The notes beneath the pieces were generated by a model. That model was not told the DNA's origin. It worked only from the letters and a program-made list of their open reading frames with translations, and made no database searches. From Eledone cirrhosa (Eukaryota): a DNA stretch of 64,000 bases. Of this stretch, positions 15,009 to 42,143 are shown one piece after another; position 1 is the first letter of the stretch, and the number at the start of each line of letters is the position of its first letter. Location of the stretch: positions 23,126,001 to 23,190,000 of the forward strand of contig OZ024748.1 of NCBI GenBank assembly GCA_964016885.1, in the 5' to 3' direction. The position numbers and the translations under genes were made by a program.

Positions 15009-18000
15009 TTAAAAACAACACCATCTGCACCAAGAACAACACCAACAACGACTGCAACAGTGACAACAACAACATCAACTGCACCAAGAACAACACCAAC
15101 AACAACTGCAACAGTGACAACAACAACACCAACTACACCAAGAACAACACCAACAACAACTGCAACAGTGACAACACCAACACCAACTACACCAAGAACA
15201 ACACCAACAACAACTGCAACAGTGACAACAACAACACCAACTACACCAAGAACAACACCAACAACAACTGCAACAGTGACAACAACAACATCAACTGTAC
15301 CAAGAACAACACCAACAACAACTGCAACAGTGACAACAACAACACCAACTACACCAAGAACAACACCAACAACAACTGCAACAGTGACAACAACAACACC
15401 AACTACACCAAGAACAACACCAACAACAACTGCAACAGTGACAACAACAACACCAACTACACCAAGAACAACACCAACAACAACTGCAACAGTGACAACA
15501 CCAACACCAACTACACCAAGAACAACACCAACAACAACTGCACCAAGAACAACACCAACAACAACTGCAACAATGACGACACCAACACCAACTACACCAA
15601 GAACAACACCAACAACAACTGCAACAGTGACAACACCAACACCAACTACACCAAGAACAACACCAACAACAACTGCAACAATGACAACACCAACACCAAC
15701 TACACCAAGAACAACACCAACAACAACTGCAACAGTGACAACAACAACACCAACTACACCAAGAACAACACCAACAACAACTGCAACAATGACAACACCA
15801 ACACCAACTACACCAAGAACAACACCAACAACAACTGCAACAGTGACAACAACAACATCAACTGTACCAAGAACAACACCAACAACAACTGCAACAGTGA
15901 CAACACCAACACCAACTACACCAAGAACAACACCAACAACAACTGCAACAGTGACAACACCAACACCAACTACACCAAGAACAACACCAACAACAACTGC
16001 AACAGTGACAACAACAACATCAACTACACCAAGAACAACACCAACAACAACTGCAACAGTGACAACACCAACACCAACTACACCAAGAACAACACCAACA
16101 ACAACTGCAACAGTGACAACACCAACACCAACTACACCAAGAACAACACCAACAACAACTGCAACAGTGACAACAACAACATCAACTACACCAAGAACAA
16201 CACCAACAACAACTGCAACAGTGACAACACCAACACCAACTACACCAAGAACAACACCAACAACAACTGCAACAGTGACAACACCAACACCAACTACACC
16301 AAGAACAACACCAACAACAACTGCAACAGTGACAACAACAACATCAACTACACCAAGAACAACACCAACAACAACTGCAACAGTGACAACACCAACACCA
16401 ACTACACCAAGAACAACACCAACAACAACTGCAACAGTGACAACAACAACATCAACTGTACCAAGAACAACACCAACAACAACTGCAACAGTGACAACAC
16501 CAACACCAACTACACCAAGAACAACACCAACAACAACTGCAACAGTGACAACAACAACATCAACTACACCAAGAACAACACCAACAACAACTGCAAAAGT
16601 GACAACACCAACACCAACTACACCAAGAACAACACCAACAACAACTGCAACAGTGGCAACAACAACACCAACTACACCAAGAACAACACCAACAACAACT
16701 GCAACAGTGACAACAACAACATCAACTACACCAAGAACAACACCAACAACAACTGCACCAAGAACAACACCAACACCAACTACACCAAGAACAACACCAA
16801 CAACAACTGCAACAGTGACAACAACAACACCAACTACACCAAGAACAACACCAACAACAACTGCAACAGTGACAACAACAACACCAACTACACCAAGAAC
16901 AACACCAACAACAACTGCAACAGTGACAACAACAACACCAACTACACCAAGAACAACACCAACAACAACTGCAACAGTGGCAACAACAACACCAACTACA
17001 CCAAGAACAACACCAACAACAACTGCAACAGTGACAACAACAACACCAACTACACCAAGAACAACACCAACAACAACTGCAACAGTGACAACAACAACAC
17101 CAACTACACCAAGAACAACACCAACAACAACTGCAACAGTGACAACAACAACACCAACTACACCAAGAACAACACCAACAACAACTGCAACAGTGACAAC
17201 AACAACACCAACTGCACCAAGAACAACACCAACAACAACTGCAACAGTGACAACAACAACATCAACTGTACCAAGAACAACACCAACAACAACTGCAACA
17301 GTGACAACAACAACACCAACTACACCAAGAACAACACCAACAACGACTGCAACAGTGACAACACCAACACCAACTGCACCAAGAACAACACCAACAACAA
17401 CTGCAACAGTGACAACAACAACATCAACTGTACCAAGAACAACACCAACAACAACTGCAACAGTGACAACAACAACACCAACTACACCAAGAACAACACC
17501 AACAACAACTGCAACAGTGACAACAACAACACCAACTGCACCAAGAACAACACCAACAACAACTGCAACAGTGACAACAACAACATCAACTGTACCAAGA
17601 ACAACACCAACAACAACTGCAACAGTGACAACAACAACACCAACTACACCAAGAACAACACCAACAACAACTGCAACAGTGACAACAACAACACCAACTG
17701 CACCAAGAACAACACCAACAACAACTGCAACAGTGACAACAACAACACCAACTGTACCAAGAACAACACCAACAACAACTGCAACAGTGACAACAACAAC
17801 ACCAACTACACCAAGAACAACACCAACAACAACTGCAACAGTGACAACAACAACATCAACTGTACCAAGAACAACACCAACAACAACTGCAACAGTGACA
17901 ACAACAACACCAACTACACCAAGAACAACACCAACAACAACTGCAACAGTGACAACAACAACACCAACTGCACCAAGAACAACACCAACAACAACTGCAA

Positions 18001-21000
18001 CAGTGACAACAATAACACCAACTACACCAAGAACAACGCCAACAACAACTGCAACAATGACAACAACAACATCAACTACACCAAGAACAACACCAACAAC
18101 AACTGTAACAGTGACAACACCAACAACAACTGCAACAAGAACAACACCAACAACAACTGCAACAGTGACGACACCAACACCAACTACACCAAGAACAACA
18201 CCAACAACAACTGCAACAGTGACAACAACAACACCAACTACACCAAGAACAACACCAACAACAACTGCAACAGTGGCAACAACAACACCAACTACACCAA
18301 GAACAACACCAACAACAACTGTAACAGTGGCAACAACAACACCAACTACACCAAGAACAACACCAACAACAACTGCAACAGTGACAACAACAACACCAAC
18401 TACACCAAGAACAACACCAACAACAACTGCAACAGTGACAACAACAACACCAACTGCACCAAGAACAACACCAACAACAACTGCAACAGTGACAACAATA
18501 ACACCAACTACACCAAGAACAACACCAACAACAACTGCAACAGTGACAACAATAACACCAACTACACCAAGAACAACACCAACAACAACTGCAACAGTGA
18601 CAACAACAACACCAACTACACCAAGAACAACACCAACAACAACTGCAACAGTGACAACAACAACACCAACTGCACCAAGAACAACACCAACAACAACTGC
18701 AACAGTGACAACAACAACACCAACTACACCAAGAACAACACCAACAACAACTGCAACAGTGACAACAACAACACCAACTACACCAAGAACAACAACAACA
18801 CCAACTACACCAAGAACAACACCAACACCAACTGCACCAAGAACAACACCAACAACGACTGCAACAATGACAACAACAACACCAACTACACCAAGAACAA
18901 CACCAACAACAACTGCAACAGTGACAACAACAACACCAACTACACCAAGAACAACACCAACAACAACTGCAACAGTGACAACAATAACACCAACTACACC
19001 AAGAACAACACCAACAACAACTGTAACAGTGACAACAATAACACCAACTACACCAAGAACAACACCAACAACAACTGCAACAGTGACAACACCAACACCA
19101 ACTACACCAAGAACAACACCAACAACAACTGCAACAGTGACAACAACAACACCAACTACACCAAGAACAACACCAACAACAACTGCAACAGTGACAACAA
19201 CAACACCAACTACACCAAGAACAACACCAACACCAACTACACCAAGAACAACACCAACACCAACTGCACCAAGAACAACACCAACAACGACTGCAACAGT
19301 GACAACACCAACAACAACTGCAACAAGAACAACACCAACAACAACTGCAACAGTGACAACAACAACACCAACTACACCAAGAACAACACCAACACCAACT
19401 ACACCAAGAACAACACCAACACCAACTGCACCAAGAACAACACCAACAACGACTGCAACAATGACAACAACAACACCAACTACACCAAGAACAACACCAA
19501 CAACAACTGCAACAGTGACAACAATAACACCAACTACACCAAGAACAACACCAACAACAACTGTAACAGTGACAACAATAACACCAACTACACCAAGAAC
19601 AACACCAACAACAACTGCAACAGTGACAACACCAACACCAACTACACCAAGAACAACACCAACAACAACTGCAACAGTGACAACAACAACACCAACTACA
19701 CCAAGAACAACACCAACAACAACTGCAACAGTGACAACAACAACACCAACTACACCAAGAACAACACCAACACCAACTACACCAAGAACAACACCAACAC
19801 CAACTGCACCAAGAACAACACCAACAACGACTGCAACAGTGACAACACCAACAACAACTGCAACAAGAACAACACCAACAACAACTGCAACAGTGACGAC
19901 ACCAACACCAACTACACCAAGAACAACACCAACAACAACTGCAACAGTGACAACAACAACACCAACTACACCAAGAACAACACCAACACCAACTACACCA
20001 AGAACAACACCAACACCAACTGCACCAAGAACAACACCAACAACAACTGCAACAGTGACAACAACAACACCAACTACACCAAGAACAACACCAACACCAA
20101 CTGCACCAAGAACAACAACAACACCAACTGCACCAAGAACAACACCAACAACGACTGCAACAATGACAACAACAACACCAACTACACCAAGAACAACACC
20201 AACAACAACTGCAACAGTGACAACAATAACACCAACTACACCAAGAACAACACCAACAACAACTGCACCAAGAACAACACCAACAACGACTGCAACAATG
20301 ACAACAACAACACCAACTACACCAAGAACAACACCAACATCAACTGTACCAAGAACAACACCAACAACAACTGCAACAGTGACAACACCAACACCAACTG
20401 CACCAAGAACAACACCAACAACAACTGCAACAGTGACAACACCAACACCAACTACACCAAGAACAACACCAACAACAACTGCAACAGTGACAACAACAAC
20501 ACCAACTACACCAAGAACAACACCAACAACAACTGCAACAGTGACAACAACAACACCAACTACACCAAGAACAACACCAACAACAACTGCAACAGTGACA
20601 ACAACAACACCAACTACACCAAGAACAACACCAACAACAACTGTAACAGTGACAACAACAACACCAACTACACCAAGAACAACACCAACAACAACTGCAA
20701 CAATGACAACAACAACACCAACTACACCAAGAACAACACCAACAACAACTGCAACAGTGACAACAACAACACCAACTACACCAAGAACAACACCAACAAC
20801 AACTGCAACAATGACAACAACAACACCAACTACACCAAGAACAACACCAACAACAACTGCAACAGTGACAACAACAACACCAACTACACCAAGAACAACA
20901 CCAACAACAACTGCAACAATGACAACAACAACACCAACTACACCAAGAACAACACCAACAACAACTGCAACAGTGACAACAACAACACCAACTACACCAA

Positions 21001-24000
21001 GAACAACACCAACAACAACTGCAACAATGACAACAACAACACCAACTACACCAAGAACAACACCAACAACAACTGCAACAGTGACAACAACAACACCAAC
21101 TACACCAAGAACAACACCAACAACAACTGCAACAATGACAACAACAACACCAACTACACCAAGAACAACACCAACAACAACTGCAACAGTGGCAACAACA
21201 ACACCAACTACACCAAGAACAACACCAACAACAACTGCAACAATGACAACAACAACACCAACTACACCAAGAACAACACCAACAACAACTGCAACAGTGA
21301 CAACAACAACACCAACTACACCAAGAACAACACCAACAACGACTGCAACAATGACAACAACAACACCAACTACACCAAGAACAACACCAACAACAACTGC
21401 AACAATGACAACAACAACACCAACTACACCAAGAACAACACCAACAACAACTGCACCAAGAACAACACCAACAACGACTGCAACAATGACAACAACAACA
21501 CCAACTACACCAAGAACAACACCAACAACAACTGCAACAGTGACAACAACAACACCAACTACACCAAGAACAACACCAACAACGACTGCAACAGTGACAA
21601 CAACAACACCAACTACACCAAGAACAACACCAACAACAACTGCAACAATGACAACAACAACACCAACTACACCAAGAACAACACCAACAACAACTGCAAC
21701 AGTGACAACAACAACACCAACTACACCAAGAACAACGCCAACAACAACTGCAACAGTGACAACAACAACACCAACTACACCAAGAACAACAACAACAACA
21801 ACTGCAACAGTGGCAACAACAACACCAACTACACCAAGAACAACACCAACAACAACTGCAACAGTGACAACAATAACACCAACTACACCAAGAACAACAC
21901 CAACAACAACTGCAACAGTGACAACAACAACACCAACTGCACCAAGAACAACACCAACAACAACTGCAACAGTGACAACAACAACATCAACTGCACCAAG
22001 AACAACACCAACAACAACTGCAACAGTGACAACAACAACACCAACTACACCAAGAACAACACCAACAACAACTGCACCAAGAACAACACCAACAACAACT
22101 GCAACAGTGACAACAACAACATCAACTGCACCAAGAACAACACCAACAACAACTGCAACAGTGACAACAACAACACCAACTGCACCAAGAACAACACCAA
22201 CAACAACTGCAACAGTGACAACAACAACACCAACTGCACCAAGAACAACACCAACAACAACTGCAACAGTGACAACAACAACACCAACTACACCAAGAAC
22301 AACACCAACAACAACTGCAACAGTGACAACAACAACATCAACTGCACCAAGAACAACACCAACAACAACTGCAACAGTGACAACAACAACACCAACTGCA
22401 CCAAGAACAACACCAACAACAACTGCAACAGTGACAACAACAACACCAACTACACCAAGAACAACACCAACAACAACTGCAACAGTGACAACAACAACAT
22501 CAACTACACCAAGAACAACACCAACAACAACTGCAACAGTGACAACAACAACACCAACTGCACCAAGAACAACACCAACAACAACTGCAACAGTGACAAC
22601 AACAACACCATCTGCACCAAGAACAACACCAACAACAACTGCAACAGTGACAACACCAACAACAACTGCAACAAGAACAACACCAACAACAACTGCAACA
22701 GTGACAACAACAACACCAACTACACCAAGAACAACACCAACAACGACTGCAACAATGACAACACCAACACCAACTACACCAAGAACAACACCAACAACAA
22801 CTGCAACAGTGACAACAACAACACCAACTGCACCAAGAACAACACCAACAACAACTGCAACAGTGACAACAACAACACCAACTACACCAAGAACAACACC
22901 AACAACAACTGCAACAGTGGCAACAACAACACCAACTGCACCAAGAACAACACCAACAACAACTGCAACAGTGACAACAACAACACCAACTGCACCAAGA
23001 ACAACACCAACAACAACTGTAACAGTGACAACAACAACACCAACTGCACCAAGAACAACACCAACAACAACTGCAACAGTGACAACAACAACACCAACTG
23101 CACCAAGAACAACACCAACAACAACTGCAACAGTGACAACAACAACACCAACTACAACAAGAACAACACCAACAACAACTGCAACAGTGACAACAACAAC
23201 ACCAACTGCACCAAGAACAACACCAACAACAACTGCAACAGTGACAACAACAACACCAACTACACCAAGAACAACACCAACAACAACTGCAACAGTGACA
23301 ACAACAACAACAACTGCAACAAGAACAACACCAACAACAACTGTAACAGTGACAACAACAACACCAACTGCACCAAGAACAACACCAACAACAACTGCAA
23401 CAGTGACAACACCAACACCAACTGCACCAAGAACAACACCAACAACAACTGCAACAGTGACAACACCAACACCAACTGCACCAAGAACAACACCAACAAC
23501 AACTGCAACAGTGACAACACCAACACCAACTACACCAAGAACAACACCAACAACAACTGCAACAGTGACAACAACAACACCAACTGCACCAAGAACAACA
23601 CCAACAACAACTGCAACAGTGACAACACCAACACCAACTGCACCAAGAACAACACCAACAACAACTGCAACAGTGACAACAACAACACCAACTGCACCAA
23701 GAACAACACCAACAACAACTGCAACAGTGACAACACCAACACCAACTGCACCAAGAACAACACCAACAACAACTGCAACAGTGACAACACCAACACCAAC
23801 TGTACCAAGAACAACACCAACAACAACTGCAACAGTGACAACAACAACACCAACTACACCAAGAACAACACCAACAACAACTGCAACAGTGACAACAACA
23901 ACACCAACTGCACCAAGAACAACACCAACAACAACTGCAACAGTGACAACAACAACACCAACTGCACCAAGAACAACACCAACAACAACTGTAACAGTGA

Positions 24001-27000
24001 CAACAACAACACCAACTGCACCAAGAACAACACCAACAACAACTGCAACAGTGACAACAACAACACCAACTGCACCAAGAACAACACCAACAACAACTGC
24101 AACAGTGACAACAACAACACCAACTACAACAAGAACAACACCAACAACAACTGCAACAGTGACAACAACAACACCAACTGCACCAAGAACAACACCAACA
24201 ACAACTGTAACAGTGACAACAACAACACCAACTGCACCAAGAACAACACCAACAACAACTGCAACAGTGACAACAACAACACCAACTACAACAAGAACAA
24301 CACCAACAACAACTGCAACAGTGACAACAACAACACCAACTGCACCAAGAACAACACCAACAACAACTGCAACAGTGACAACAACAACACCAACTACAAC
24401 AAGAACAACACCAACAACAACTGTAACAGTGACAACAACAACACCAACTGCACCAAGAACAACACCAACAACAACTGCAACAGTGACAACAACAACACCA
24501 ACTGCACCAAGAACAACACCAACAACAACTGCAACAGTGACAACAACAACACCAACTGCACCAAGAATAACACCAACAACAACTGCAACAGTGACAACAC
24601 CAACACCAACTACAACAAGAACAACACCAACAACAACTGCAACAGTGACAACAACAACACCAACTGCACCAAGAACAACACCAACAACAACTGTAACAGT
24701 GACAACAACAACATCAACTGCACCAAGAACAACACCAACAACAACTGCAACAGTGACAACAACAACACCAACTACAACAAGAACAACACCAACAACAACT
24801 GTAACAGTGACAACAACAACACCAACTGCACCAAGAACAACACCAACAACAACTGCAACAGTGACAACAACAACACCAACTGCACCAAGAACAACACCAA
24901 CAACAACTGCAACAGTGACAACAACAACACCAACTACAACAAGAACAACACCAACAACAACTGCAACAGTGACAACAACAACACCAACTGCACCAAGAAC
25001 AACACCAACAACAACTGCAACAGTGACAACAACAACACCAACTGCACCAAGAACAACACCAACAACAACTGCAACAGTGACAACAACAACACCAACTGCA
25101 CCAAGAACAACACCAACAACAACTGCAACAGTGACAACAACAACACCAACTACACCAAGAACAACACCAACAACAACTGTAACAGTGACAACAACAACAC
25201 CAACTGCACCAAGAACAACACCAACAACAACTGCAACAGTGACAACAACAACACCAACTGCACCAAGAACAACACCAACAACAACTGCAACAGTGACAAC
25301 AACAACACCAACTGCACCAAGAACAACACCAACAACAACTGCAACAGTGACAACAACAACACCAACTACACCAAGAACAACACCAACAACAACTGCAACA
25401 GTGACAACAACAACACCAACTGCACCAAGAACAACACCAACAACAACTGCAACAGTGACAACAACAACACCAACTGCACCAAGAACAACACCAACAACAA
25501 CTGTAACAGTGACAACAACAACATCAACTACACCAAGAACAACACCAACAACAACTGCAACAGTGACAACAACAACACCAACTACACCAAGAACAACACC
25601 AACAACAACTGCAACAGTGACAACAACAACACCAACTGCACCAAGAACAACACCAACAACAACTGCAACAGTGACAACAACAACACCAACTGCACCAAGA
25701 ACAACACCAACAACAACTGCAACAGTGACAACAACAACACCAACTGCACCAAGAACAACACCAACAACAACTGCAACAGTGACAACAACAACACCAACTG
25801 CACCAAGAACAACACCAACAACAACTGCAACAGTGACAACACCAACACCAACTACACCAAGAACAACACCAACAACAACTGCAACAAGAACAACACCAAC
25901 AACAACTGTAACAGTGACAACAACAACACCAACTGCACCAAGAACAACACCAACAACAACTGCAACAGTGACAACAACAACACCAACTACACCAAGAACA
26001 ACACCAACAACAACTGCAACAGTGACAACACCAACACCAACTGCACCAAGAACAACACCAACAACAACTGCAACAGTGACAACACCAACACCAACTACAC
26101 CAAGAACAACAACAACAACAGCTGCAACAGTGACAACACCAACACCAACTACAACAAGAACAACACCAACAACAACTGCAACAGTGACAACAACAACACC
26201 AACTACAACAAGAACAACACCAACAACAACTGCAACAGTGACAACAACAACACCAACTACACCAAGAACAACACCAACAACAACTGCAACAGTGACAACA
26301 ACAACACCAACTGCACCAAGAACAACACCAAGAACAACTGCAACAGTGACAACACCAACACCAACTGCACCAAGAACAACACCAACAACAACTGCAACAG
26401 TGACAACAACAACACCAACTACACCAAGAACAACACCAAGAACAACTGCAACAGTGACAACACCAACACCAACTGCACCAAGAACAACACCAACAACAAC
26501 TGCAACAGTGACAACACCAACACCAACTGCACCAAGAACAACACCAAGAACAACTGCAACAGTGACAACACCAACACCAACTGCACCAAGAACAACACCA
26601 ACAACAACTGCAACAGTGACAACAACAACACCAACTGCACCAAGAACAACACCAAGAACAACTGCAACAGTGACAACACCAACACCAACTGCACCAAGAA
26701 CAACACCAACAACAACTGCAACAGTGACAACAACAACACCAACTACACCAAGAACAACACCAACAACAACTGCAACAGTGACAACAACAACACCAACTGC
26801 ACCAAGAACAACACCAAGAACAACTGCAACAGTGACAACACCAACACCAACTGCACCAAGAACAACACCAACAACAACTGCAACAGTGACAACAACAACA
26901 TCAACTGCACCAAGAACAACACCAACAACAACTGCAACAGTGACAACACCAACACCAACTACACCAAGAACAACACCAACAACAACTGCAACAGTGACAA

Positions 27001-30000
27001 CAACAACACCAACTACACCAAGAACAACACCAACAACAACTGCAACAGTGACAACACCAACACCAACTACACCAAGAACAACACCAACAACAACTGCAAC
27101 AGTGACAACACCAACACCAACTGCACCAAGAACAACACCAACAACGACTGCAACAATGACAACAACAACACCAACTACACCAAGAACAACACCAACAACA
27201 ACTGCAACAGTGACAACACCAACACCAACTACACCAAGAACAACACCAACAACAACTGCAACAGTGACAACAACAACACCAACTACACCAAGAACAACAC
27301 CAACAACAACTGCAACAGTGACAACAACAACACCAACTACACCAAGAACAACACCAACAACAACTGCAACAGTGACAACAACAACACCAACTACACCAAG
27401 AACAACACCAACAACAACTGCAACAGTGACAACAACAACATCAACTACACCAAGAACAACACCAACAACAACTGCAACAGTGACAACACCAACACCAACT
27501 ACACCAAGAACAACACCAACAACAACTGCAACAGTGACAACAACAACACCAACTACACCAAGAACAACACCAACAACAACTGCAACAGTGACAACAACAA
27601 CACCAACTACACCAAGAACAACACCAACAACAACTGCAACAGTGACAACAACAACACCAACTACACCAAGAACAACACCAACAACAACTGCAACAGTGAC
27701 AACAACAACATCAACTACACCAAGAACAACACCAACAACAACTGCAACAGTGACAACAACAACACCAACTACACCAAGAACAACACCAACAACAACTGCA
27801 ACAGTGACAACACCAACACCAACTACACCAAGAACAACACCAACAACAACTGCAACAGTGACAACAACAACACCAACTACACCAAGAACAACACCAACAA
27901 CAACTGCAACAGTGACAACAACAACACCAACTACACCAAGAACAACACCAACAACAACTGCAACAGTGACAACAACAACATCAACTACACCAAGAACAAC
28001 ACCAACAACAACTGCAACAGTGACAACAACAACACCAACTACACCAAGAACAACACCAACAACAACTGCAACAGTGACAACACCAACACCAACTACACCA
28101 AGAACAACACCAACAACAACTGCAACAGTGACAACAACAACACCAACTACACCAAGAACAACACCAACAACAACTGCAACAGTGACAACAACAACACCAA
28201 CTACACCAAGAACAACACCAACAACAGCTGCAACAGTGACAACACCAAGAACAACACCAACAACAACTGCAACAGTGACAACAACAACACCAACTACACC
28301 AAGAACAACACCAACAACAACTGCAACAGTGGCAACAACAACACCAACTGCACCAAGAACAACACCAACAACAACTGCAACAGTGACAACAACAACACCA
28401 ACTACACCAAGAACAACACCAACAACAACTGCAACAGTGGCAACAACAACACCAACTGCACCAAGAACAACACCAACAACAACTGCAACAGTGACAACAA
28501 CAACACCAACTACACCAAGAACAACACCAACAACAACTGCAACAGTGGCAACAACAACACCAACTGCACCAAGAACAACACCAACAACAACTGCAACAGT
28601 GACAACACCAACACCAACTACACCAAGAACAACACCAACAACAACTGCAACAGTGACAACACCAACACCAACTACACCAAGAACAACACCAACAACAACT
28701 GCAACAGTGACAACAACAACATCAACTACACCAAGAACAACACCAACAACAACTGCAACAGTGACAACACCAACACCAACTACACCAAGAACAACACCAA
28801 CAACAACTGCAACAGTGACAACAACAACACCAACTACACCAAGAACAACACCAACAACAGCTGCAACAGTGACAACACCAAGAACAACACCAACAACAAC
28901 TGCAACAGTGACAACAACAACACCAACTACACCAAGAACAACACCAACAACAACTGCAACAGTGGCAACAACAACACCAACTGCACCAAGAACAACACCA
29001 ACAACAACTGCAACAGTGACAACACCAACACCAACTGCACCAAGAACAACACCAACAACAACTGCAACAGTGACAACACCAACACCAACTGCACCAAGAA
29101 CAACACCAACAACAACTGCAACAGTGACAACAACAACACCAACTACACCAAGAACAACACCAACAACAACTGCAACAGTGACAACAACAACACCAACTGC
29201 ACCAAGAACAACACCAACAACAACTGCAACAGTGACAACACCAACACCAACTGCACCAAGAACAACACCAACAACAACTGCAACAGTGACAACAACAACA
29301 CCAACTACACCAAGAACAACACCAACAACAACTGCAACAGTGACAACAACAACACCAACTACACCAAGAACAACACCAACAACAACTGCAACAGTGACAA
29401 CAACAACACCAACTGCACCAAGAACAACACCAACAACAACTGCAACAGTGACAACACCAACACCAACTGCACCAAGAACAACACCAACAACAACTGCAAC
29501 AGTGACAACAACAACACCAACTACACCAAGAACAACACCAACAACAACTGCAACAGTGACAACAACAACACCAACTACACCAAGAACAACACCAACAACA
29601 ACTGCAACAGTGACAACAACAACACCAACTGCACCAAGAACAACACCAACAACAACTGCAACAGTGACAACACCAACACCAACTGCACCAAGAACAACAC
29701 CAACAACAACTGCAACAGTGACAACAACAACACCAACTGCACCAAGAACAACACCAACAACAACTGCAACAGTGACAACACCAACACCAACTGCACCAAG
29801 AACAACACCAACAACAACTGCAACAGTGACAACAACAACACCAACTACACCAAGAACAACACCAACAACAACTGCAACAGTGACAACAACAACACCAACT
29901 GCACCAAGAACAACACCAACAACAACTGCAACAGTGACAACACCAACACCAACTGCACCAAGAACAACACCAACAACAACTGCAACAGTGACAACAACAA

Positions 30001-31274
30001 CACCAACTGCACCAAGAACAACACCAACAACAACTGCAACAGTGACAACACCAACACCAACTGCACCAAGAACAACACCAACAACAACTGCAACAGTGAC
30101 AACAACAACACCAACTACACCAAGAACAACACCAACAACAACTGCAACAGTGACAACAACAACACCAACTACACCAAGAACAACACCAACAACAACTGCA
30201 ACAGTGACAACAACAACACCAACTGCACCAAGAACAACACCAACAACAACTGCAACAGTGACAACACCAACACCAACTACACCAAGAACAACACCAACAA
30301 CAACTGCAACAAGAACAACACCAACAACAACTGTAACAGTGACAACAACAACACCAACTACACCAAGAACAACACCAACAACAACTGCAACAGTGACAAC
30401 AACAACACCAACTACACCAAGAACAACACCAACAACAACTGCAACAGTGACAACAACAACACCAACTACACCAAGAACAACACCAACAACAACTGCAACA
30501 GTGACAACAACAACACCAACTACACCAAGAACAACACCAACAACAACTGCAACAGTGACAACAACAACACCAACTACACCAAGAACAACACCAACAACAA
30601 CTGCAACAGTGACAACAACAACACCAACTACACCAAGAACAACACCAACAACAACTGCAACAGTGACAACAACAACACCAACTACACCAAGAACAACACC
30701 AACAACAACTGCAACAGTGACAACAACAACACCAACTACACCAAGAACAACACCAACAACAACTGCAACAGTGACAACAACAACACCAACTACACCAAGA
30801 ACAACACCAACAACAACTGCAACAGTGACAACAACAACACCAACTACACCAAGAACAACACCAACAACAACTGCAACAGTGACAACACCAACACCAACTA
30901 CACCAAGAACAACACCAACAACAACTGCAACAGTGACAACAACAACACCAACTGCACCAAGAACAACACCAACAACGACTGCAACAATGACAACAACAAC
31001 ACCAACTACACCAAGAACAACACCAACAACAACTGCAACAGTGACAACAACAACACCAACTACACCAAGAACAACACCAACAACAACTGCAACAGTGACA
31101 ACACCAACACCAACTACACCAAGAACAACACCAACAACAATAGCAACAGTGACAACAACAACACCAACTACACCAAGAACAACACCAACAACAATAGCAA
31201 CTGTGAAAACAGCAACAACAACTGCACATTCGCAGCTGCGGCTGCAAAAACAGGAACATTTTACCAACTGGTAA
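15009..31274 (+). CDS. Giant mucin-like Pro/Thr (PTS) repeat domain, ~5,400 aa, 18-aa unit [18 protein letters not shown] (exon or pseudo-exon)
   Basis: Frame open for >16 kb. Variants are mostly first-position exchanges among NCA codons (T/P/A/S), and all indels are multiples of 3, typical of O-glycosylated mucin domains. No signal peptide or flanking mucin domains found; in-frame TAG at 15006-15008. Confidence 0.6.
15020..31225 (+). repeat. 54-bp tandem array (~300 units)
   Basis: Consensus ACAACAACTGCAACAGTGACAACAACAACACCAACTACACCAAGAACAACACCA; 47 of 54 bases are A or C on the + strand. Confidence 0.98.
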
Positions 31275-31350
31275 TGCACTGGGGTCGATTTAATCGGCTT
31301 TCCTCTCCCCCCAAATTGCTGGCCTTTTGCCTATAGTAGAAACAATTATT
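31271..31350 (+). mobile_element. SINE 3' fragment immediately after the mucin-like array
   Basis: GTAATGCACTGGGGTCGATTTAATCG...AAATTGCTGGCCTTTTGCCTATAGTAGAAAC matches the SINE tail at 55214-55290. Confidence 0.8.
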
Positions 31351-31449
31351 ATTATTATTAGCATTCTAGCACGATTATTTCTAGTTGATTCTCTGCATCA
31401 AATAATTTAGCAGGGCTTAACTATTATGCGGATGACGTCCCTGAACGAT

Positions 31450-32005
31450 TATTTTCGCTCTGTTGTTGTCAGAGACATTGTAAATGTCACCACCAAATTA
31501 TAGTTGACATGAACATTGGTTGTGAAACAGAGATCTCCAGTATTTGTTGCTCCTGGTTGAACAAATTAGTCAGTGCAGCCATGCAACGTTCTCTGCTTGA
31601 ATGCCGGAAGAACGCCATCTTCTGGCCATTTCGGTTTAGAAACATTGAAGTTAGCCAAAAGGAATACATTAGCCTGCTTATTGAATTCTGTTAATAACTG
31701 TTCTATCTTACCGAGACCCTCCTCCGGTGTTTGTGCTACGGGCAAAGTTTTACACACATCATTACGGTGAGTTCCCTTATGAGAGAACCAATGAGGCGAA
31801 TTCCTCACGACTTGTGTATTTCCTGGCACTGCAGACAATACAATAACCTGCATGTTATATTTCTGCATCTAATGTGTTTACTATGGAATGCTGTCGGTTC
31901 TATTACAGCTATGTTGTATTGCTTCAATGAATACTTGCGGCATTTACATCTGCTACTAGCTTGTAACAAACTTACAACATTTAAAGTAGAATTGTTGGAA
32001 TGGAG
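31450..32005 (-). mobile_element. Decayed CR1-type APE endonuclease remnant
   Basis: Broken peptides DAEI*HAGYCIVCSARKYTSREEFA and NVFLLANFNVSKPKW resemble APE motifs DAEI..GY....DR...GGVA and GDFN...W. Confidence 0.5.
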
Positions 32006-32140
32006 TGAACATTCTAGATTTATTAACTGTGGCTACTTTGCATGTTGGCGGGAGTATCTCTCTCTATATATGTATGCATGTACGTATGTATGTATGTATG
32101 TATGTATGTATGTATGTATGTATGTATGTATGTATGTATG

Positions 32141-32967
32141 TTCTTCTGCTTTTATAATTTCACAAAGTTTTCCCAATAGAGAGAGAGTCGGTTTCTAACA
32201 TAGACACAAGACTCTCTCATTGGAATTTACACAACATCAACTAGGTAGATTATGTATGCGTGCATGCATGTGTAGATATGGATGTTATTGTATGTGTGGA
32301 TGTGTATGTTTTGAGTTGTATGTGTGCATGTGTATATGCTTTGTATCTGTACATGTGTATATGCAGTTATTAGATGCAACATTTTTGGAATGTTTTACAT
32401 ATTTTTACTGTTCCATTAATGGATTGTACTTGTAATTTCCTAACTAGTTGTGTTCTTTCTGTTCCTGTGAAGCCTAGCTTCTCAAGATTTGTATTGAGGC
32501 AGTTACTAACATATCCCAGTGCCCCAATAATCACAGGCATAAATCTGAAGGTGTAATCAGGGTGGAGTATCTGCAGATTTCTCATCAGTTCTGCATAAAT
32601 ATTCTCCTTTTCACTAATCTTTGATATTATATTGGCATCTGCTGGGCAGCTAACTTCCACTACTGTGCATGTTTTCTTCTCCCTGTCTCATATCATAATA
32701 TCTGGTCTGTTATGCCTGCATTTTATTGGGGTTTTTACTGGAATATTCCACCAGTACTCTTTCATATTATGTACATGGATGTCTTCCACATTGTTGTAGC
32801 TTTTAATGTGTTTACTATCGGGGCTATCTTTTTTACGAACTGCATTGTACAGTGTTTTGGCCACTACATCATGCATCATAGGTAGATAGTACCGCGATGA
32901 CATTTTTGGGCAGCTGCTGATGACATGGGTGATATCCTCGATGTTAGTTCTGCAGAGTCTGCACTTG
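32141..32967 (-). mobile_element. 5'-truncated R4/Dong-like RLE LINE (family B)
   Basis: CCHC knuckle [19 protein letters not shown], (R/M)HD motif, HNRPDIMI*D...VEVSCP...KENIY (stop at 32688-32690), ORF end at 32370 and a ~230-nt 3' UTR. (TATG)n on both flanks. Confidence 0.88.
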
Positions 32968-33116
32968 TATGTATGTATGTATGTATGTATGTATGTATGT
33001 ATGTATGTATGTATGTATGTATGTATGTATGTATGTACGTACGTATGTATGTATGTATGTAGATATGTATGTATGTATGTACGTATGTATGTATGTACGT
33101 ATGTATGTATGTTTTT

Positions 33117-33286
33117 TACCATGGGCCCAGCACTATGTGTCAGTAATTGTCACAAGTGTAGTGTTTGTACCAGAGTTTTCAAGTCGCTGGCTGGACTAAA
33201 GTCACATTCGTTCAGCGCATCGGTAGGGGTTCTCCTACATGGATATAAAGTAGTGGCCGTACTCGAAAACGAGTTGGCAGCCACTA
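33117..33286 (+). mobile_element. RTE-derived non-autonomous element (family A), 3' fragment
   Basis: HKCSVCTRVFKSLAGLKSH zinc-finger remnant, 3' hairpin and (TATG)n tail. Confidence 0.8.
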
Positions 33287-33373
33287 TGTATGTATGTATG
33301 TATGTATGTATGTATGTATGTATGTATGTATGTATGTATGTATGTATGTATGTGTGTGTGTATGCATGCATGC

Positions 33374-33406
<33 letters not shown>

Positions 33407-33614
33407 TGTATGTATGTATGTATGTATGTATGTATGTACGTGTGTGTGTGTATATGTATGTAGGTGTGTATGCGTGTATGTGTATGTATGTAGGTATGTA
33501 TGTATGTATGTATGTATGGTGGTATGCATGTATGTATATGTGTGTATGTGTGTGTGTATGTGTGTGTGTATGTGTGTGTGTGTATGTATATATGTATTGT
33601 GTGTGCTTCTTATG

Positions 33615-33855
33615 AGATTGATCAAAGTACTATAAGTTGGTGGAGGACTTCCACAGGATTGGGTAGAGGAGAGGGTGCATGCCCATGGAGGCTGGCAGCC
33701 GATGGTTCACAGCGCGTTCACTTAGCAAAACTTACGGAACTCTAGGTATTACGGGAGCAAACAGAGGCAGAGTCATAAAAAAACAAAGTGGCTGCAAAGA
33801 AGTGACCAATAGGGTCAGTTGTATATATGCAACTTGGCCAAATACTGATCAATCT
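33615..33855 (+). mobile_element. 3' end of a HERO-like RLE LINE (decayed)
   Basis: Translation SKYYKLVEDFHRIG*RRGCMPMEAGSRWFTARSLSKTYGTLGITGANRGRVIK fits the recalled HERO-clade C-terminus KY..LV.....GW...C.P.EVG.RGF...SL......LGI.G. Confidence 0.65.
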
Positions 33856-36506
33856 TAGTTGGGTCACCTGGATGACGGTGACTATGTTGTAAGACCCCAC
33901 CAAATACCAAGTAATTTCAGGACACAACACAAAGGATGTGTCCTGTAGTTGGGTCACCTGGATGACGGCGACTATGTTGTAAGACCCCTCCAAATACCAA
34001 GTAATTCCAGGACACAGCACAAAGGATGTGTCCTGTAGTTGGGTCACCTGGATGAGGGTGACTATGTTGTAAGACCCCACCAAATACCAAGTAATTCCAG
34101 GACACAGCACAAAGGATGTGTCCTGTAGTTGGGTCACCTGGATGAGGGTGACTATGTTGTAAGACCCCACCAAATACCAAGTAATTCCAGGACACAACAC
34201 GAAGGATGTGTTCTGTAGTTGGGTCACCTGGATGAGGGTGACTATGTTGTAAGACCCCACCAAATACCAAGTAATTCCAGGACACAACACAAAGGATGTG
34301 TTCTGTAGTTGGGTCACCTGGATGAGGGTGACTATGTTGTAAGACCCCACCAAATACCAAGTAATTCCAGGACACAACACAAAGGATGTGTCCTGTAGTT
34401 GGGTCACCTGGATGACGGCGACTATGTTGTAAGACCCCACCAAATACCAAGTAATTCCAGGACACAACACAAAGGATGTGTCCTGTAGTTGGGTCACCTG
34501 GATGACGGTGACTATGTTGTAAGACCCCACCAAATACCAAGTAATTCCAGGGCACAACACGAAGGATGTGTCCTGTAGTTGGGTCACCTGGATGACGGTG
34601 ACTATGTTGTCAGACCCCACCAAATACCAAGTAATTCCAGGACACAACACAAAGGATGTGTCCTGTAGTTGGGTCACCTGGATGACGGTGACTATGTTGT
34701 AAGACCCCACCAAATACCAAGTAATTCCAGGACACAACACGAAGGATGTGTTCTGTAGTTGGGTCACCTGGATGAGGGTGACTATGTTGTAAGACCCCAC
34801 CAAATACCAAGTAATTCCAGGACACAACACAAAGGATGTGTTCTGTAGTTGGGTCACCTGGATGAGGGTGACTATGTTGTAAGACCCCACCAAATACCAA
34901 GTAATTCCAGGACACAACACAAAGGATGTGTTCTGTAGTTGGGTCACCTGGATGAGGGTGACTATGTTGTAAGACCCCAGCAAATACCAAGTAATTCCAG
35001 GACACAACGCAAAGGATGTGTCCTGTAGTTGGGTCACCTGGATGAGGGTGACTATGTTGTAAGACCCCACCAAATACCAAGTAATTCCAGGACACAACAC
35101 AAAGGATGTGTCCTGTAGTTGGGTCACCTGGATGACGGCGACTATGTTGTAAGACCCCACCAAATACCAAGTAATTCCAGGACACAACACAAAGGATGTG
35201 TCCTGTAGTTGGGTCACCTGGATGACGGTGACTATGTTGTAAGACCCCACCAAATACCAAGTAATTCCAGGGCACAACACGAAGGATGTGTCCTGTAGTT
35301 GGGTCACCTGGATGACGGTGACTATGTTGTCAGACCCCACCAAATACCAAGTAATTCCAGGACACAACACAAAGGATGTGTCCTGTAGTTGGGTCACCTG
35401 GATGACGGTGACTATGTTGTAAGACCCCACCAAATACCAAGTAATTCCAGGACACAACACGAAGGATGTGTTCTGTAGTTGGGTCACCTGGATGAGGGTG
35501 ACTATGTTGTAAGACCCCACCAAATACCAAGTAATTCCAGGACACAACACAAAGGATGTGTTCTGTAGTTGGGTCACCTGGATGAGGGTGACTATGTTGT
35601 AAGACCCCACCAAATACCAAGTAATTCCAGGACACAACACAAAGGATGTGTTCTGTAGTTGGGTCACCTGGATGAGGGTGACTATGTTGTAAGACCCCAG
35701 CAAATACCAAGTAATTCCAGGACACAACACAAAGGATGTGTCCTGTAGTTGGGTCACCTGGATGAGGGTGACTATGTTGTAAGACCCCACCAAATACCAA
35801 GTAATTCCAGGACACAACACAAAGGATGTGTTCTGTAGTTGGGTCACCTGGATGAGGGTGACTATGTTGTAAGACCCTTCCAAATACCAAGTAATTCCAG
35901 GACACAACACAAAGGATGTGTTCTGTAGTTGGGTCACCTGGATGAGGGTGACTATGTTGTAAGACCCTTCCAAATACCAAGTAATTCCAGGACACAACAC
36001 AAAGGATGTGTTCTGTAGTTGGGTCACCTGGATGAGGGTGACTATGTTGTAAGACCCCACCAAATACCAAGTAATTCCAGGACACAACACAAAGGATGTG
36101 TCCTGTAGTTGGGTCACCTGGATGAGGGTGACTATGTTGTAAGACCCCACCAAATACCAAGTAATTCCAGGACACAACACAAAGGATGTGTTCTGTAGTT
36201 GGGTCACCTGGATGAGGGTGACTATGTTGTAAGACCCTTCCAAATACCAAGTAATTCCAGGACACAACACAAAGGATGTGTCCTGTAGTTGGGTCACCTG
36301 GATGAGGGTGACTATGTTGTAAGACCCCACCAAATACCAAGTAATTCCAGGACACAACACAAAGGATGTGTTCTGTAGTTGGGTCACCTGGATGAGGGTG
36401 ACTATGTTGTAAGACCCTTCCAAATACCAAGTAATTCCAGGACACAACACAAAGGATGTGTCCTGTAGTTGGGTCACCTGGATGACGGTGACTATGTTGT
36501 AAGACC
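33856..36506 (+). repeat. 90-bp minisatellite, ~29.5 copies
   Basis: Unit TAGTTGGGTCACCTGGATGAGGGTGACTATGTTGTAAGACCCCACCAAATACCAAGTAATTCCAGGACACAACACAAAGGATGTGTCCTG; no indels seen; contains a 720-bp higher-order duplication. Confidence 0.98.
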
Positions 36507-36870
36507 AGAAACACCCAGTGATTCCAGCTTACAACACTGATGATGTGTTCAATGTTTTACCTCCGCTGATATATGAAGAGCAGTAACTGGATAATATTTG
36601 ATTGATAGACAGGCACAACGTCACCGTGATTCTCAACCGAAAATATGTAGTATAGTTCCAGTATTTTACCTAGAGAATCTCAATATAATGTCGCAATATT
36701 AAATATCGTACCATAAAGGTTAAACGGATTTTTGCCTTTTTTTTTTTTATCAGCGCCATAACAGAGGGAGAATTGTGCATCTGTTCCTTATACTGCATGT
36801 GTGTTTCCCTCTAATGATTGAACTAATTCTTAGAGTCAAATTATTCCATATAGAATAAAAAGATACCTAC

Positions 36871-36905
<35 letters not shown>

Positions 36906-36917
36906 GTTCTCCCCCCC

Positions 36918-36999
<82 letters not shown>

Positions 37000-37233
37000 T
37001 ATATATTTTAAATATCACTTACTTAACGTGTTTAAAACCTTACAGAAAAGTGCTCGAAAATGTGAATTTATCATTAAAACGCAAATAGGAACTATCATAA
37101 CCATAATAAATATTTCTCAAGTACAGTGAGAGTATATTTTCGTGCAAAGTCTAACAAATTGCTCCAGAAATCTTATGCATAATCAGGATACCTGAAATTT
37201 AATGCTATAATATAATGTAAAAAAAAATGAAAG

Positions 37234-37326
<93 letters not shown>

Positions 37327-38384
37327 TAAAATAAAAATTTGTATGTATATGTTTATATATTCATATAAATGTGTGCGAGTGACTGTTTTGGGGTGTATAT
37401 TCGTATATTCGTATATTCGTATATTCGTATATATTCTTTTTTTTTCCCCGGACAAGAATCCATGTTTTTTACAGACATTTGTACAAAAAGAAATACACAC
37501 ACGCGTGTGTGTGTGAGTTTGTATATATATATATATGTATGTATGTATATGTATATATATGTATGTATATATATGTGTGTGTCTGTGTGTCTGTGTGTTA
37601 GTCGTTAGCGTTCACCGGAACTGGATTATAAGATAATCAACCGGAATGCTGCCATTTCAAATGAGCTTTTCACGTATAAAATTGTACGTGATATTTTTTT
37701 TTACATTATATCTTATGGTATTTTATTTGATGTAACTTGATAATATATTCAGGTTTATTAAGTTCTTTGGTAGACTTTGCACAAAAGTTTACTCCCGTTG
37801 TGTATTAGAAATATTTATTATTATTATGATAGCTTTCTAATATTAACCTCGGGTTGTTGAGCACGTTGCTGTATTGTTTTACACAAAAAGACCTTACTTG
37901 AAATCAAGAAATTTCGGCAGTATATTCAGAGCTGTTGTTCCAATTTATGAAATTTAGGGTTAGGGATGAATGAGATGTGAATCTCTGAGATCGAGGAATA
38001 TTCGACCTCAGGAGAAGGGAAACTGGCATACAGGCTTGTGCCTCGGAGGGGAAGTTTCTAGGCAAAATCCATGGTAATTCATGACCGAAAGGTGTCTTTG
38101 CCTTTAGCTAGTATTATACTGAAATTGATTCCATCAGCTGTATTCTCTTTGTCACGAGAAATCGAATATGTAGCGACATTAAATACCATATGTTATTGAA
38201 CTTCGATTAGAGTTGATTTGTTAATTAACAGCTTTCTGCCTATCGATATAGTAAATACAAATCACCTAATTATTGTATTGTTATAAAGCTGTTGTGAAAT
38301 ATAGTAGATATGATTAACCGAATTCTTGTTAAACAATTGATTATTACATATAGAGATATAATTAACCAATTTTTATTTTAGATA

Positions 38385-38694
38385 TAAGAAAAACCAACAA
38401 AGAAAAAGAACACGGGAGAACCATACAATGCAATGATACTGTGTTAGGTTAACGCTTGATATGATTGAAAAAGAGTCTTAACGTTTCGGGCATCAGTCCT
38501 TCATCGGAAGATAGAATGAAAGAGAGAAAAGTGGATGTTTGAAGGGAGAGAGAAGCAGAAAAAGGAAGATAGACGAAAATAAAAAAGGAAACAAAGAAAA
38601 CGATGGATGGGGAAGTAAGCATGTGTTGTTTATTTAGGATTTGAGTAAGAAAGGAAGGAAGCAGTATAGAAACTAGTAGATAAATCAATGAAAA

Positions 38695-38700
<6 letters not shown>
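38385..38700 (-). mobile_element. Penelope-like remnant with a degenerate hammerhead
   Basis: Minus strand CCGATGAAGG-ACTGATG-CCC-GAAACGTTAAG at ~38477-38508; adjacent to (TA)n; related to 1592-1872. Confidence 0.5.
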
Positions 38701-38726
<26 letters not shown>

Positions 38727-39799
38727 GAGGACAAATTATAGAGACGACTATCAGAGATAATATGAGAAATTTGAACAAAAAGAAAAAAATATTTAAATAT
38801 GTGAAGTAGTAAAATCGGACAAAATATAATTGTTAAGATCTGCTAAAATTCATGTACATCAGCCACAATGCAAAGACATTTCAAAATTACAGCCGCACGA
38901 CATGATACTGCGGAAGTCTAACAATATAGGTTTGTCAGAACTGACCCGAATTCATATTCATGTCTGCCAAAGGCGCAATTTTATTGCTCTTGAATGTTGA
39001 ATGTATAACATAACACATTTTCACACAAAACTACAAACCAAAGATGTCAACTAAAGGTACAATACAATACTGTTACTTTCTCCGTATCTTAACTTATAAG
39101 GTACAATACACTAATACTCAACATACTTGACCTACGTCATGAGATGTTCAACGATCGGCAGCCATCTTGTGATTTCGTCTAAAATAATTGAGATTGTCGG
39201 ATATTGGAAAAGAAAATTATAATTGGATTAATTTAAGCTGTCAATTTCTTAAAAATAGAATGAAACCCAATCATCATTTACCAAACTTTTGACGCTTATT
39301 GTCAGGAATTTGTTTCTTTTTTTTTAAATCTCAAATATATCTTCGAAGCAACACTGTGAATAACAATAAGAAATTGTTAACAGGTTATTAATCCGCACCC
39401 CATTTTTGAAGGCTACAATAATAATTTGAAATATAAAAAATATAGAAATGCTAACGTTCAATCTGAGTAGGAAGATTTTATGTTTCTGCTTTGTAAAGAA
39501 AGGAATATTCAATGAGAAGATCACATTATTTCCAGTTGTGCAAGGGTTATCAATTAAAATGGCGTCTTAACAAATGTCATGAGCTCTCAGAATGACGTTT
39601 ATAGAGACAGGAAATGTCACACATTAATGCGGTTGGATTTTTCTTATATTTCAATATGATATTTGTGTATGCATGCATGTATATGGTTGTGTATGTATGT
39701 ATGTATGTATGTATGTATGTATGTATGTATGTATGTATGTATGTATGTATGTATGTATGTATGTATGTATGTATGTGTATATGTGTGTGTGTGTGTGTT

Positions 39800-39830
<31 letters not shown>

Positions 39831-40148
39831 AAGGACTAGTGGTTTTTGCAACAGTAACAATGGAACTGAACAGATTCTATGCTAATATTGTATAATTTTC
39901 TCTTCTTCCCACGCGTTCTCTTTAACTCCCCCTCTTTCCTTACATATATATATATATGTGTATGTGTGTGTTCCTGTCTCTGCGTGTGTATGCATGTGTA
40001 TGTATATATATATGTATATATATATATATATGTATTCCTGTATGTATATACACACACACCCACACACACACAAACACACATATATACATACACACATGCA
40101 TACGCATACCCACAGGACATGCATACACACACATACAAGAAGAGATGG

Positions 40149-40198
<50 letters not shown>

Positions 40199-40504
40199 CT
40201 CTTCTTCTCTCAATATGCCTCCTCTTGAGCCCGATGGCCTTACCTGGCCCTACGTCATACTATAGGTCAATCTGTCGTATCCTATAGTATTGACAATCAT
40301 GCTTGGTTGGGCACAACATTTGTTACACATTTATATGAGGAAGATGAGTATTGACGTACGTGTACGTCAATACTCATCTTTCTCCATTTCTCCGAGGGTT
40401 CTTAACCCCACTATCAGGCTAAATAATTTCTTTAATTTCTTTAGTCAAAATACGGCGATAGCTTACATTTCTAATAGTAATATATATATATATATGAACA
40501 AAAA

Positions 40505-40805
40505 AAAATGGCGTAGACATACAACACAACAGGAGGAACAATGAATATAACACCACTGACGATGTTGCAGATGTGCAACGAAAGATTTATGTAAATTATG
40601 TAAACTATATATATGTGTTTGTGTCTATATTGTATCTGTATTATTTTAGACCGCCGGTCAGTCAATGGCAACATTGAGGACCGAGTAAGTTAGATCGCAG
40701 ATATATATATATAAAAGACAGCGAGAAGCGAAAACCAACCAAACAGTGAGTGTGTTCTGTTATTAATTCTGGCAATATTACGCAAATATGACCCTCCCCA
40801 AATAT

Positions 40806-40812
<7 letters not shown>
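40505..40812 (+). mobile_element. Solo copy of the element that forms the 58.4-59.2-kb palindrome
   Basis: Near-identical to 58935-59229, flanked by (TA)n, and contains CTGACGA-T-GTTGCA-GATG-TGCAAC-GAAA. Confidence 0.8.
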
Positions 40813-40841
<29 letters not shown>

Positions 40842-40906
40842 GTAGGTCCCGGGTTGAGTCGGGGATAGCCACAGTAAGTAAGGTACTCAATACATGGCAG
40901 AGTAAA

Positions 40907-41043
40907 TTTTTTTTATTTTATAGAAGGAGCTTCTACAGGACTAGTACTGTTTCATTCAGATGAAATCTTCAGGCGCTTCCTGAAGATTTCATCTGAATGA
41001 AACAGTACTAGTCCTGTAGAAGCTCCTTCTATAAAATAAAAAA

Positions 41044-41044
<1 letters not shown>
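40907..41044. repeat. Perfect inverted repeat (~67-bp arms, loop CGCTT) with a hammerhead-like core in each arm
   Basis: CTGAAGA-TTTCA-TC-TGAAT-GAAA-C-AGTACTA-GTC on both strands; abuts (TA)n. Confidence 0.85.
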
Positions 41045-41131
<87 letters not shown>

Positions 41132-41189
41132 GATAATAGGAAAAGAGTATTTATATATATATATATATAAATACTCTTTCCCTATTACC

Positions 41190-41494
<305 letters not shown>

Positions 41495-41623
41495 AAAATT
41501 CTATTTAAAATTGTTGGGATACAACAAGTAAATATTTTTATAACTGATATAAAGCACTCGACAAGTATTTGGAGTAGATATACGATATTAATAAATGGAA
41601 ACTATATTTATAAAACCATATTT

Positions 41624-41686
41624 ATTTCATTATACATATTTCAGGGATACCAAATTAAATTATGGTATGCCTTCATCAGACAAAAT
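41624..41686 (-). ncRNA. Type I minimal hammerhead ribozyme candidate
   Basis: ATTTTGT-CTGATGA-AGGCATACCA-loop-TGGTATCCCT-GAAA-TATGT-ATA-ATGAAAT: intact core with pairable stems I, II and a short stem III. Confidence 0.65.
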
Positions 41687-42143
41687 ACAATATATAACAG
41701 TTTTACAAATAAGCTTTGACGTACCCTTTTAAAATGCAACCATTATTTTTGGAAGCCATCTGGATAGTGAGTTGTTTATATTATTTTAATAAGTCATAGT
41801 GTTAAGGACAATTAGAAAAATATCTGTTGTAATTAGAATTCAAAAGTTTAGACTTGTAACGTATTGTCTGGCGATGAATCTCCCTGACAACTACATAAAT
41901 GTTTGTGGAATGCTCAGCCACTTTCACGTTACTTTCACAAGCAGCTGGAACCCTCGTTCTCACAGATGGAGATCTAACGTGCACGCGTATTCGTGTGTCT
42001 GTGTATGCATGTGAGTCTATCAGATAGTGTCTGATTCTGCGCAGTCGTATCGAACTGCATCTATATCACATTGTCATTGTTCGGTCTGTATGAATTGCAT
42101 CTGCGCAGTTGTGTGTGAGTAAATAATCAAAGTATGTGTGTGC

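Follow-up and report, generated by a model that had tools for sequence, protein, structure and literature searches.

A predicted split-core hammerhead fold in the 3′ UTRs of HERO-type retrotransposons

A 90-bp tandem array in the stretch of DNA analysed here (64,000 nucleotides in full, hereafter the window) ends in a unit that holds all strands of a hammerhead ribozyme in a non-cyclic order, which raises the question of whether these strands belong to a real RNA fold. Every letter that a preliminary description had placed in this unit was found at its position: GGTG (36487-36490), ACTA (36491-36494), TGTTGTAAG (36495-36503), GAAA (36508-36511), CACC (36512-36515), CTTACAACA (36528-36536) and CTGATGA (36537-36543). 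GGTG pairs with the CACC directly after GAAA as stem III, as proposed, and pairing of CTGGA with TCCAG is possible in this copy. The proposed 9-bp stem I stands for the window copy but not for its family (family 1), of which other copies give 7 bp; it was rejected as a family feature because it arises from changes private to the window copy.

Taken by itself, the window copy fails as a hammerhead. Its cleavage strand, already described as imperfect, carries a 2-nt insertion before the NUH triplet and one stem mismatch, and the insertion puts NUH out of register with stem III. The G10.1-C11.1 pair is lost to a G.A at 10.1-11.1 (position 11.1 is A, compared with C in 25/30 relatives), and the outer helices P0 and P1 are missing. 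No Rfam hammerhead match at E<=10 was obtained in window positions 30000-42000, and a descriptor of the fold set out below gave 0 matches over the whole window. The window copy alone would therefore be insufficient to argue for more than chance; it is taken as more than chance because its homologues show the fold.

The suggestion that the unit belongs to a HERO-type LINE's 3′ UTR was borne out, as the decayed end of a restriction-like endonuclease (RLE) ORF precedes the array on the same strand. This fragment, which has one internal stop, is 42% identical over 64 aa (E 7e-16) to a young family of the same genome (family 3), with which it falls in a starred 19-row clade. The combination of an RT with an RLE-type C-terminus was recognised from RVT_1 in family 2 and from the full ORF layout in family 3, whereas the window retains the RLE end only. 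The label HERO is based on this layout, on the close resemblance by eye of the family-3 RT to HEROTn (in the accessible supplement of PMC7650587) and on a short endonuclease-domain tree without named references. According to the available text of PMC4640811, a single ORF with RT, zinc knuckle and RLE, together with frequent microsatellite flanks, is shared with the HERO clade. A herring protein (P0018) and metagenome locus L194 match the family-3 endonuclease end at L146:2988-3440 with 88% identity, making this element a candidate for horizontal transfer if its host is not a fish.

Two further features of the window were recorded. The minus strand at 32370-33150 carries the zinc knuckle and endonuclease end of another RLE-type LINE, unrelated to the first; this fragment is interrupted by a (TATG)n tract, and its branch, a long one, lies outside the HERO set. 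Positions 14969-31226 hold about 300 copies of a 54-bp unit, in which more than 5400 codons stay open in two plus-strand frames and one minus-strand frame; the plus frames are Thr/Pro-rich or Asn/Thr/Cys-rich, and the array could be a mucin-like exon or a plain satellite.

A pattern in the strand order of the preliminary description, with an intact GUC, gave 5 matches in the genome (control, 0), all of them behind a different HERO-like ORF. Families 2 and 3 were reached by a protein search of the genome (151 matches), and families 1, 2 and 3 share one fold plan in different letters. The plan begins with a P0 arm, the P1 hairpin, a stem II arm, a helix B arm and a stem III arm with NUH. It continues with a stem I arm, a short linker and a stem II arm running into GAAA and the other stem III arm, and closes with a helix B arm, a stem I arm followed by CUGANGA, and the second P0 arm. 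A9, P0, P1 and G10.1 are contiguous, usually without a spare base. Natural copies that keep the plan intact include L146:3448-3572, L198:445-569 and L235:2336-2460. A strict descriptor was passed by 11/29 family-3 copies and by 0/30 of the old family-2 copies; in family 1, a passing unit was found at 1/33 loci.

Metagenomes were scanned with an endonuclease alignment, the best 80 of 254 relatives being picked by protein alone, and the fold was counted over the 66 loci whose sequence extends 200 nt or more beyond the ORF. Within 400 nt, 40/66 loci show an exact core in S-G-C order together with stems I and III. An upstream stem II arm, P1 and P0 were also present in 32 of those 40, with no gap in 26 of the 32. 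In controls, upstream-only shuffles passed in 101/960 cases and whole shuffles in 0/660. By eye, most failing loci are single-mismatch copies and eight lack the motif; four of these eight have the full fold 496-1671 nt further downstream, three end within 500 nt, and one (L238) has no fold over 2500 nt. This brings the full fold to 36/66 protein-selected loci from the best 80 of 254 relatives. Five loci (L239, L250, L258, L273 and L261) have a hairpin-rich 3′ UTR of 500-1670 nt before the fold. No Rfam hammerhead match was obtained in 15 related loci, 11 of them fold-bearing; the split of the CUGAnGA block accounts for descriptor and Rfam searches missing the fold. No HERO relative was found among viral contigs.

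To compare relatives, family 3 and 29 metagenome loci, the latter selected for the presence of the core, were aligned as 30 elements with MAFFT without reference to structure, at a median identity of 53%. The six helices are paired in 93.7% of cells, and 33/39 pairs show changes on both sides; 0/500 shuffles do as well, and slid partners give 33.5-42.4%. P0 (helix 1) is 92.5% paired with 9/9 pairs covarying, stem II (helix 3) 96.0% with 3/5 pairs changed on both sides, helix B (helix 4) 89.8% with 4/5 covarying, stem I (helix 6) 93.4% with 6/6 pairs changed on both sides, and stem III 97.2% with 3/6. A classic type-SGC stem II, built from the arm after CUGANGA, was rejected, as it is paired in 40.7% of cells and 486/500 shuffles are as high. 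The comparison that the preliminary description had called for thus came out in its favour, CUGANGA, GAAA and NUH being conserved and the stems covarying, and its proposal of a pseudoknotted hammerhead-type fold holds for the relatives, where the core is kept. With nested folding, no helices beyond P0, P1, B and III are recovered, which is what a pseudoknotted fold would lead one to expect; z was -4.1 to -5.4 in three intact relatives and -1.7 and -1.8 in the first and last units of the window.

Because the rows were chosen for having the core, its invariance in the alignment is partly due to selection: CUGANGA and RAAA were partly used to pick the 30 rows, and N7, H17, U16.1, G16.2 and G10.1 were not. 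Among the 30 elements N7 is free (U19/A5/C5/G1), H17 is never G (C14/U9/A7/G0), U16.1 is present in 29, G10.1 in 28 and C11.1 in 25. Judged by these letters, the positions unused for selection appear to behave as in a working hammerhead. Intact relatives carry CUGANGA, GAAA and NUH with N7 free and H17 other than G, and their covarying stems I, II and III sit in the correct register around the core. The direct A9-G10.1 link, with 0-2 extra bases, is absent, and P0 and P1 intervene. Taken together, the data indicate that the fold is a conserved six-helix RNA predicted for the 3′ UTRs of HERO-type retrotransposons, and intact relatives are predicted to self-cleave after NUH, which is held to be probable.

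Mapped onto this plan (Table 1), the final unit of the window array emerges as a decayed, fossil version of the six-helix fold and is very likely inactive. The stem II that had been called weak was misassigned, as its true 5′ arm is GGGTC (36471-36475), upstream of the cleavage strand. Ahead of the first unit the palindromic P1 loop TGATCA survives at 33846-33851, and only there does the P0 3′ arm of the last unit have a partner, itself decayed.

Table 1. Parts of the decayed HERO-type element and of its last fold copy in the window.
Feature	Position	Strand	Support
HERO-type restriction-like endonuclease ORF, decayed C-terminal end (family 1)	33622..33855	+	Protein comparison
Relic P0 5′ arm and P1 hairpin, ahead of first unit	33833..33860	+	Better preserved at further loci of family 1
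Tandem array, 90-bp period, 30 units, decayed fold copies without P0/P1	33856..36506	+	
5′ arm of stem II, upstream of cleavage strand; G10.1 is its first G	36471..36475	+	Helix 3 covariation
Helix B 5′ arm (equivalent of the type SGC stem I-II interaction helix)	36477..36481	+	Helix 4 covariation
Kink-turn-like internal loop joining helix B and stem III, short strand	36482..36485	+	G 25/30, A 30/30
Stem III 3′ arm and cleavage strand, 2-nt insertion (GGTG-AC-TA)	36486..36494	+	
Stem I arm after predicted cut	36495..36501	+	Helix 6, 6/6 pairs covary
Stem II 3′ arm (36503-36507), GAAA (36508-36511), stem III 5′ arm (36512-36516)	36503..36516	+	
Long strand of kink-turn-like loop (3-nt bulge and GA) and helix B 3′ arm	36517..36528	+	G 29/30, A 30/30
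Stem I arm (36530-36536) and CUGAUGA (36537-36543)	36530..36543	+	
P0 3′ arm, directly after A9	36544..36552	+	Helix 1, 9/9 pairs covary
Short tail, element end	36553..36581	+	Matches of other copies stop there

Family 1, of which 33 separate loci were read among several hundred DNA matches, holds from 1 to 66 units per locus. The 2-nt insertion precedes the cleavage triplet in 283/302 units, a ratio biased by a search query that itself carried the insertion; 12 units have an intact GUA and 7 are unclassified. Two-unit copies at L085 and L095 have an intact GUA in unit 1 and the insertion in unit 2, and the insertion may have arisen in such a redundant second unit. Loss of the core from the array units was confirmed, with GAAA and CUGAnGA both kept in 1/30 units, the last. 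Within the window array, likeness is 96.9% for inner units and 82% for the last one; units from six other long arrays reach 73-81% likeness to it, and it shows an 8-unit higher-order repeat. The likeness of the inner units and the higher-order repeat indicate that this array grew as a minisatellite, expanding at the DNA level after insertion and decay. A retrozyme-like, rolling-circle array copied from a ribozyme-cut minicircle is ruled out by the locus-specific decay and the 8-unit repeat. A coding role was set aside, the 928-codon open frame on the minus strand being attributed to the lack of stops in the 90-bp unit. Other HERO families (L339, L307) also have tandem arrays over parts of the fold, a region that seems prone to duplication.

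The fold has neither the circularly permuted order of types I-III nor a match to their Rfam models. Its block order is already published as type SGC (PMC10085705, Eckert 2023), and what is new is that the CUGANGA block is split by two helices, with stem II placed upstream. In the accessible text of that paper, type-SGC hammerheads, comprising HRIMA-1 and its variants, cleave in vitro at 0.007-0.19 per minute and come from metatranscriptomes, none being found in genomes of known organisms; type CSG is described there as a further non-circularly permuted hammerhead. Type SGC and the HERO fold both run from cleavage strand to GAAA block to CUGAnGA with a complete core, both have a short linker from stem I to stem II, and in both an extra helix ties the other sides of stems I and II. 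As far as can be judged from the paper's text, the SGC extra helix is joined to the far end of stem III, like helix B. By contrast, Block C of type SGC (stem I arm, CUGAnGA and stem II arm) is one piece, assumed never to be interrupted and with A9-G10.1 insertions not above one or two bases, whereas in HERO elements it is split, the stem II arm lying upstream and P0 and P1 between A9 and G10.1. Helix B also differs from its SGC counterpart in being joined to stem III on both strands via a kink-turn-like loop. Cleavage was shown for type SGC, in metatranscriptomic RNAs, and is predicted for the HERO fold, which belongs to a clade of animal retrotransposons. The literature searched yielded no natural hammerhead in which helices separate A9 from G10.1, nor, in a body of literature short of most subscription papers, any published description of this split wiring or mention of a HERO ribozyme, kissing loop or circular template. 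The split-core fold of HERO elements appears well supported and is apparently undescribed.

Two loops of the fold carry further conserved letters. The consensus kink-turn separates two helices by a 3-nt bulge and then tandem G.A pairs. Where stem III meets helix B, a kink-turn-like loop shows a 3-nt bulge and then tandem G.A letters, conserved in 25-30 of the 30 elements; family 2, with a plain 3-nt bulge, and several distant elements depart from these letters. In 28/30 aligned elements the six nucleotides of the P1 loop form a perfect palindrome (TGATCA 23, TGGCCA 4, TCATGA 1), and in L226 the loop reads AGTACT. Among 27 distinct folds the loop is palindromic in 15, against 3.0 expected, the hexamer palindrome being missing in family 2 and some distant elements. 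These palindromes suggest a kissing-loop dimer, which is possible through a hairpin loop and would be unlike a multimer of array units. That kissing P1 loops would bring two ribozymes together we hold to be somewhat short of an even proposition.

How the element is copied was approached through its tandem copies and ends. The family-3 unit is 3.6 kb, and at L146 a 611-nt partial copy is joined without spacer to a full copy. Of ten family-3 copies with a 5′ UTR, 4 continue upstream unbroken across the tail and the core, their first bases lying 25, 42, 521 and 809 nt ahead of the predicted cut; among the others one starts 4 nt past the tail end, one is inverted and 4 are truncated inside. The tandem junctions are letter-identical and free of target sequence in 4/4 cases. 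At the 3′ end (30 loci examined among 38 matches), 21/25 single copies share an end point to within 2 nt, at about 90 nt beyond the cut, while of the other loci 4 read on into the next unit and 1 was not resolved. Past the tail end of single copies, a test too weak to bear weight, the match extended 0 nt in 18/30 cases, 1-3 nt in 7 and 12 nt in 3, with 2 not located. Where at least 300 nt follow the core in a metagenome contig, 10/46 contigs run into a HERO ORF start that lies on the same strand. A hairpin-like 5′ UTR motif, CAGTGAC..GGAAAG, was seen 51-88 nt past the core in 10/52 contigs (L211, L212, L216, L218, L223, L226, L227, L232, L234 and L235) and near position 3610 of L146; a control gave 1 match in 122 kb.

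The tandem and contig data indicate a template that passes without interruption over the tail-to-5′ UTR junction and the cut site, a continuity equally explained by a circle, by uncut read-through RNA or by template jumps. A pile-up of 5′ ends at the cut was not seen in family 3, where 1/29 copies starts there (0-4 nt ambiguity) and a further apparent case is an internal deletion, and no clear one was seen among 30 family-2 copies. Variants shared between the two copies of one tandem numbered a suggestive 6 in 609 nt (rank 2/526 pairs, at one locus) and, at another tandem locus, 0 in 106 nt.

We lean towards a reading in which the HERO fold self-cleaves and head-to-tail transcripts yield a unit RNA that becomes a circular copying template. 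P0 and P1 would stack and hold A9 beside G10.1 in a five-way core junction. A viroid hammerhead tolerates an extra base at the A9-G10.1 link. The kink-turn-like loop would bend helix B back, tying the far ends of stems I and II and replacing the contact between loops I and II. Since known A9-G10.1 insertions do not exceed one or two bases in the accessible text of PMC10085705, the split could slow or stop catalysis. If cleavage occurs after NUH, head-to-tail transcripts would be cut to unit-length RNA, whose ends may re-pair and be ligated, perhaps aided by kissing of the palindromic P1 loops. Such re-pairing and ligation are plausible because the unit ends would be complementary halves of one ribozyme, held together after the cut by P0, II, B and III. 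Reverse transcriptase would then prime inside the circle and may run more than one turn, steps that, with the re-joining itself, we give an even chance. The reading in full, in which a hammerhead opened at A9/G10.1 into a five-way junction, with kink-turn and kissing loop, acts in pairs that cut and swap halves so that the clade is copied from RNA circles, is offered tentatively, at rather less than even odds.

An unlikely but serious alternative is that the same fold self-cleaves without any circle, tandem copies giving uncut read-through RNA that is internally primed as in Penelope elements, while the cut trims co-transcripts, sets the 5′ end or starts translation of a downstream ORF. All tandem and 3′-end data would fit it equally. 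In the portions of PMC11167929 available, the Penelope element PAc is primed internally, uncut RNA is its main template, no reads end at the cut, and hammerhead mutants still insert in vitro. Penelope-like elements also share with HERO elements partial-tandem copies with a hammerhead in the repeated end, a fixed internal priming point and AT-rich flanks (accessible text of PMC4209133 and PMC11167929). They differ from HERO, an RLE-type LINE, in having GIY-YIG, a telomerase-like RT and type I or minimal hammerheads in pseudo-LTRs. In head-to-tail copies the cut sits a few hundred bases before the next ORF, and self-cleavage can promote cap-independent translation (PMC13725137, text available in part). 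Against this alternative, it needs a standing tandem source in each lineage, whereas a circle would directly explain the identical, target-free family-3 junctions.

It is improbable that the fold, though derived from a hammerhead, is without catalysis and acts as a scaffold to which the HERO protein binds when choosing template and priming site. The fold does lie about 90 nt before a fixed 3′ end, genomic copies always contain the uncut site, and family 1 spread widely despite the 2-nt insertion. What is conserved at 53% median identity is nevertheless a catalytic signature (N7 free, H17 never G, U16.1, G10.1-C11.1), and a binding scaffold need not avoid G17.

Assembly of the hammerhead in trans or across neighbouring array units, the alternative raised in the preliminary description, is very improbable. 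Many family-1 loci hold 2-66 units, the P1 loops are self-complementary, and minimal Penelope hammerheads may act as dimers (PMC4209133, accessible part). Multimers of array units are not needed, however: most relatives are single-unit and all six helices close in cis, pairing between the arm that follows CUGANGA and the one that precedes GAAA stays below its shuffles, and the arrays are locus-specific, lack P0/P1 and are younger than the decay. Chance motifs in a satellite, finally, have a negligible probability: the window copy alone passes no test, and a loose pattern gives 11 matches in viral contigs that lack stem I by eye and were taken as chance, but for the family this explanation is refuted by covariation, shuffle controls and the catalytic signature.

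Like R2, HERO is an RLE-type LINE with a self-cleaving RNA, predicted in HERO, that processes the transcript; R2 and other LINEs have a 5′ HDV-like ribozyme, whereas HERO has a hammerhead core behind the ORF (PMC13725137 and PMC7650587, as far as their accessible text goes). The HERO fold breaks an assumption on which hammerhead permutations have been enumerated, that the CUGAnGA block is unbreakable, and it places a non-circular hammerhead in animal genomes, where PMC10085705, in its accessible text, found none. It also suggests a Penelope-like or circular RNA life cycle for a clade of RLE-type LINEs, kin of the R2 elements that are now used for gene insertion.
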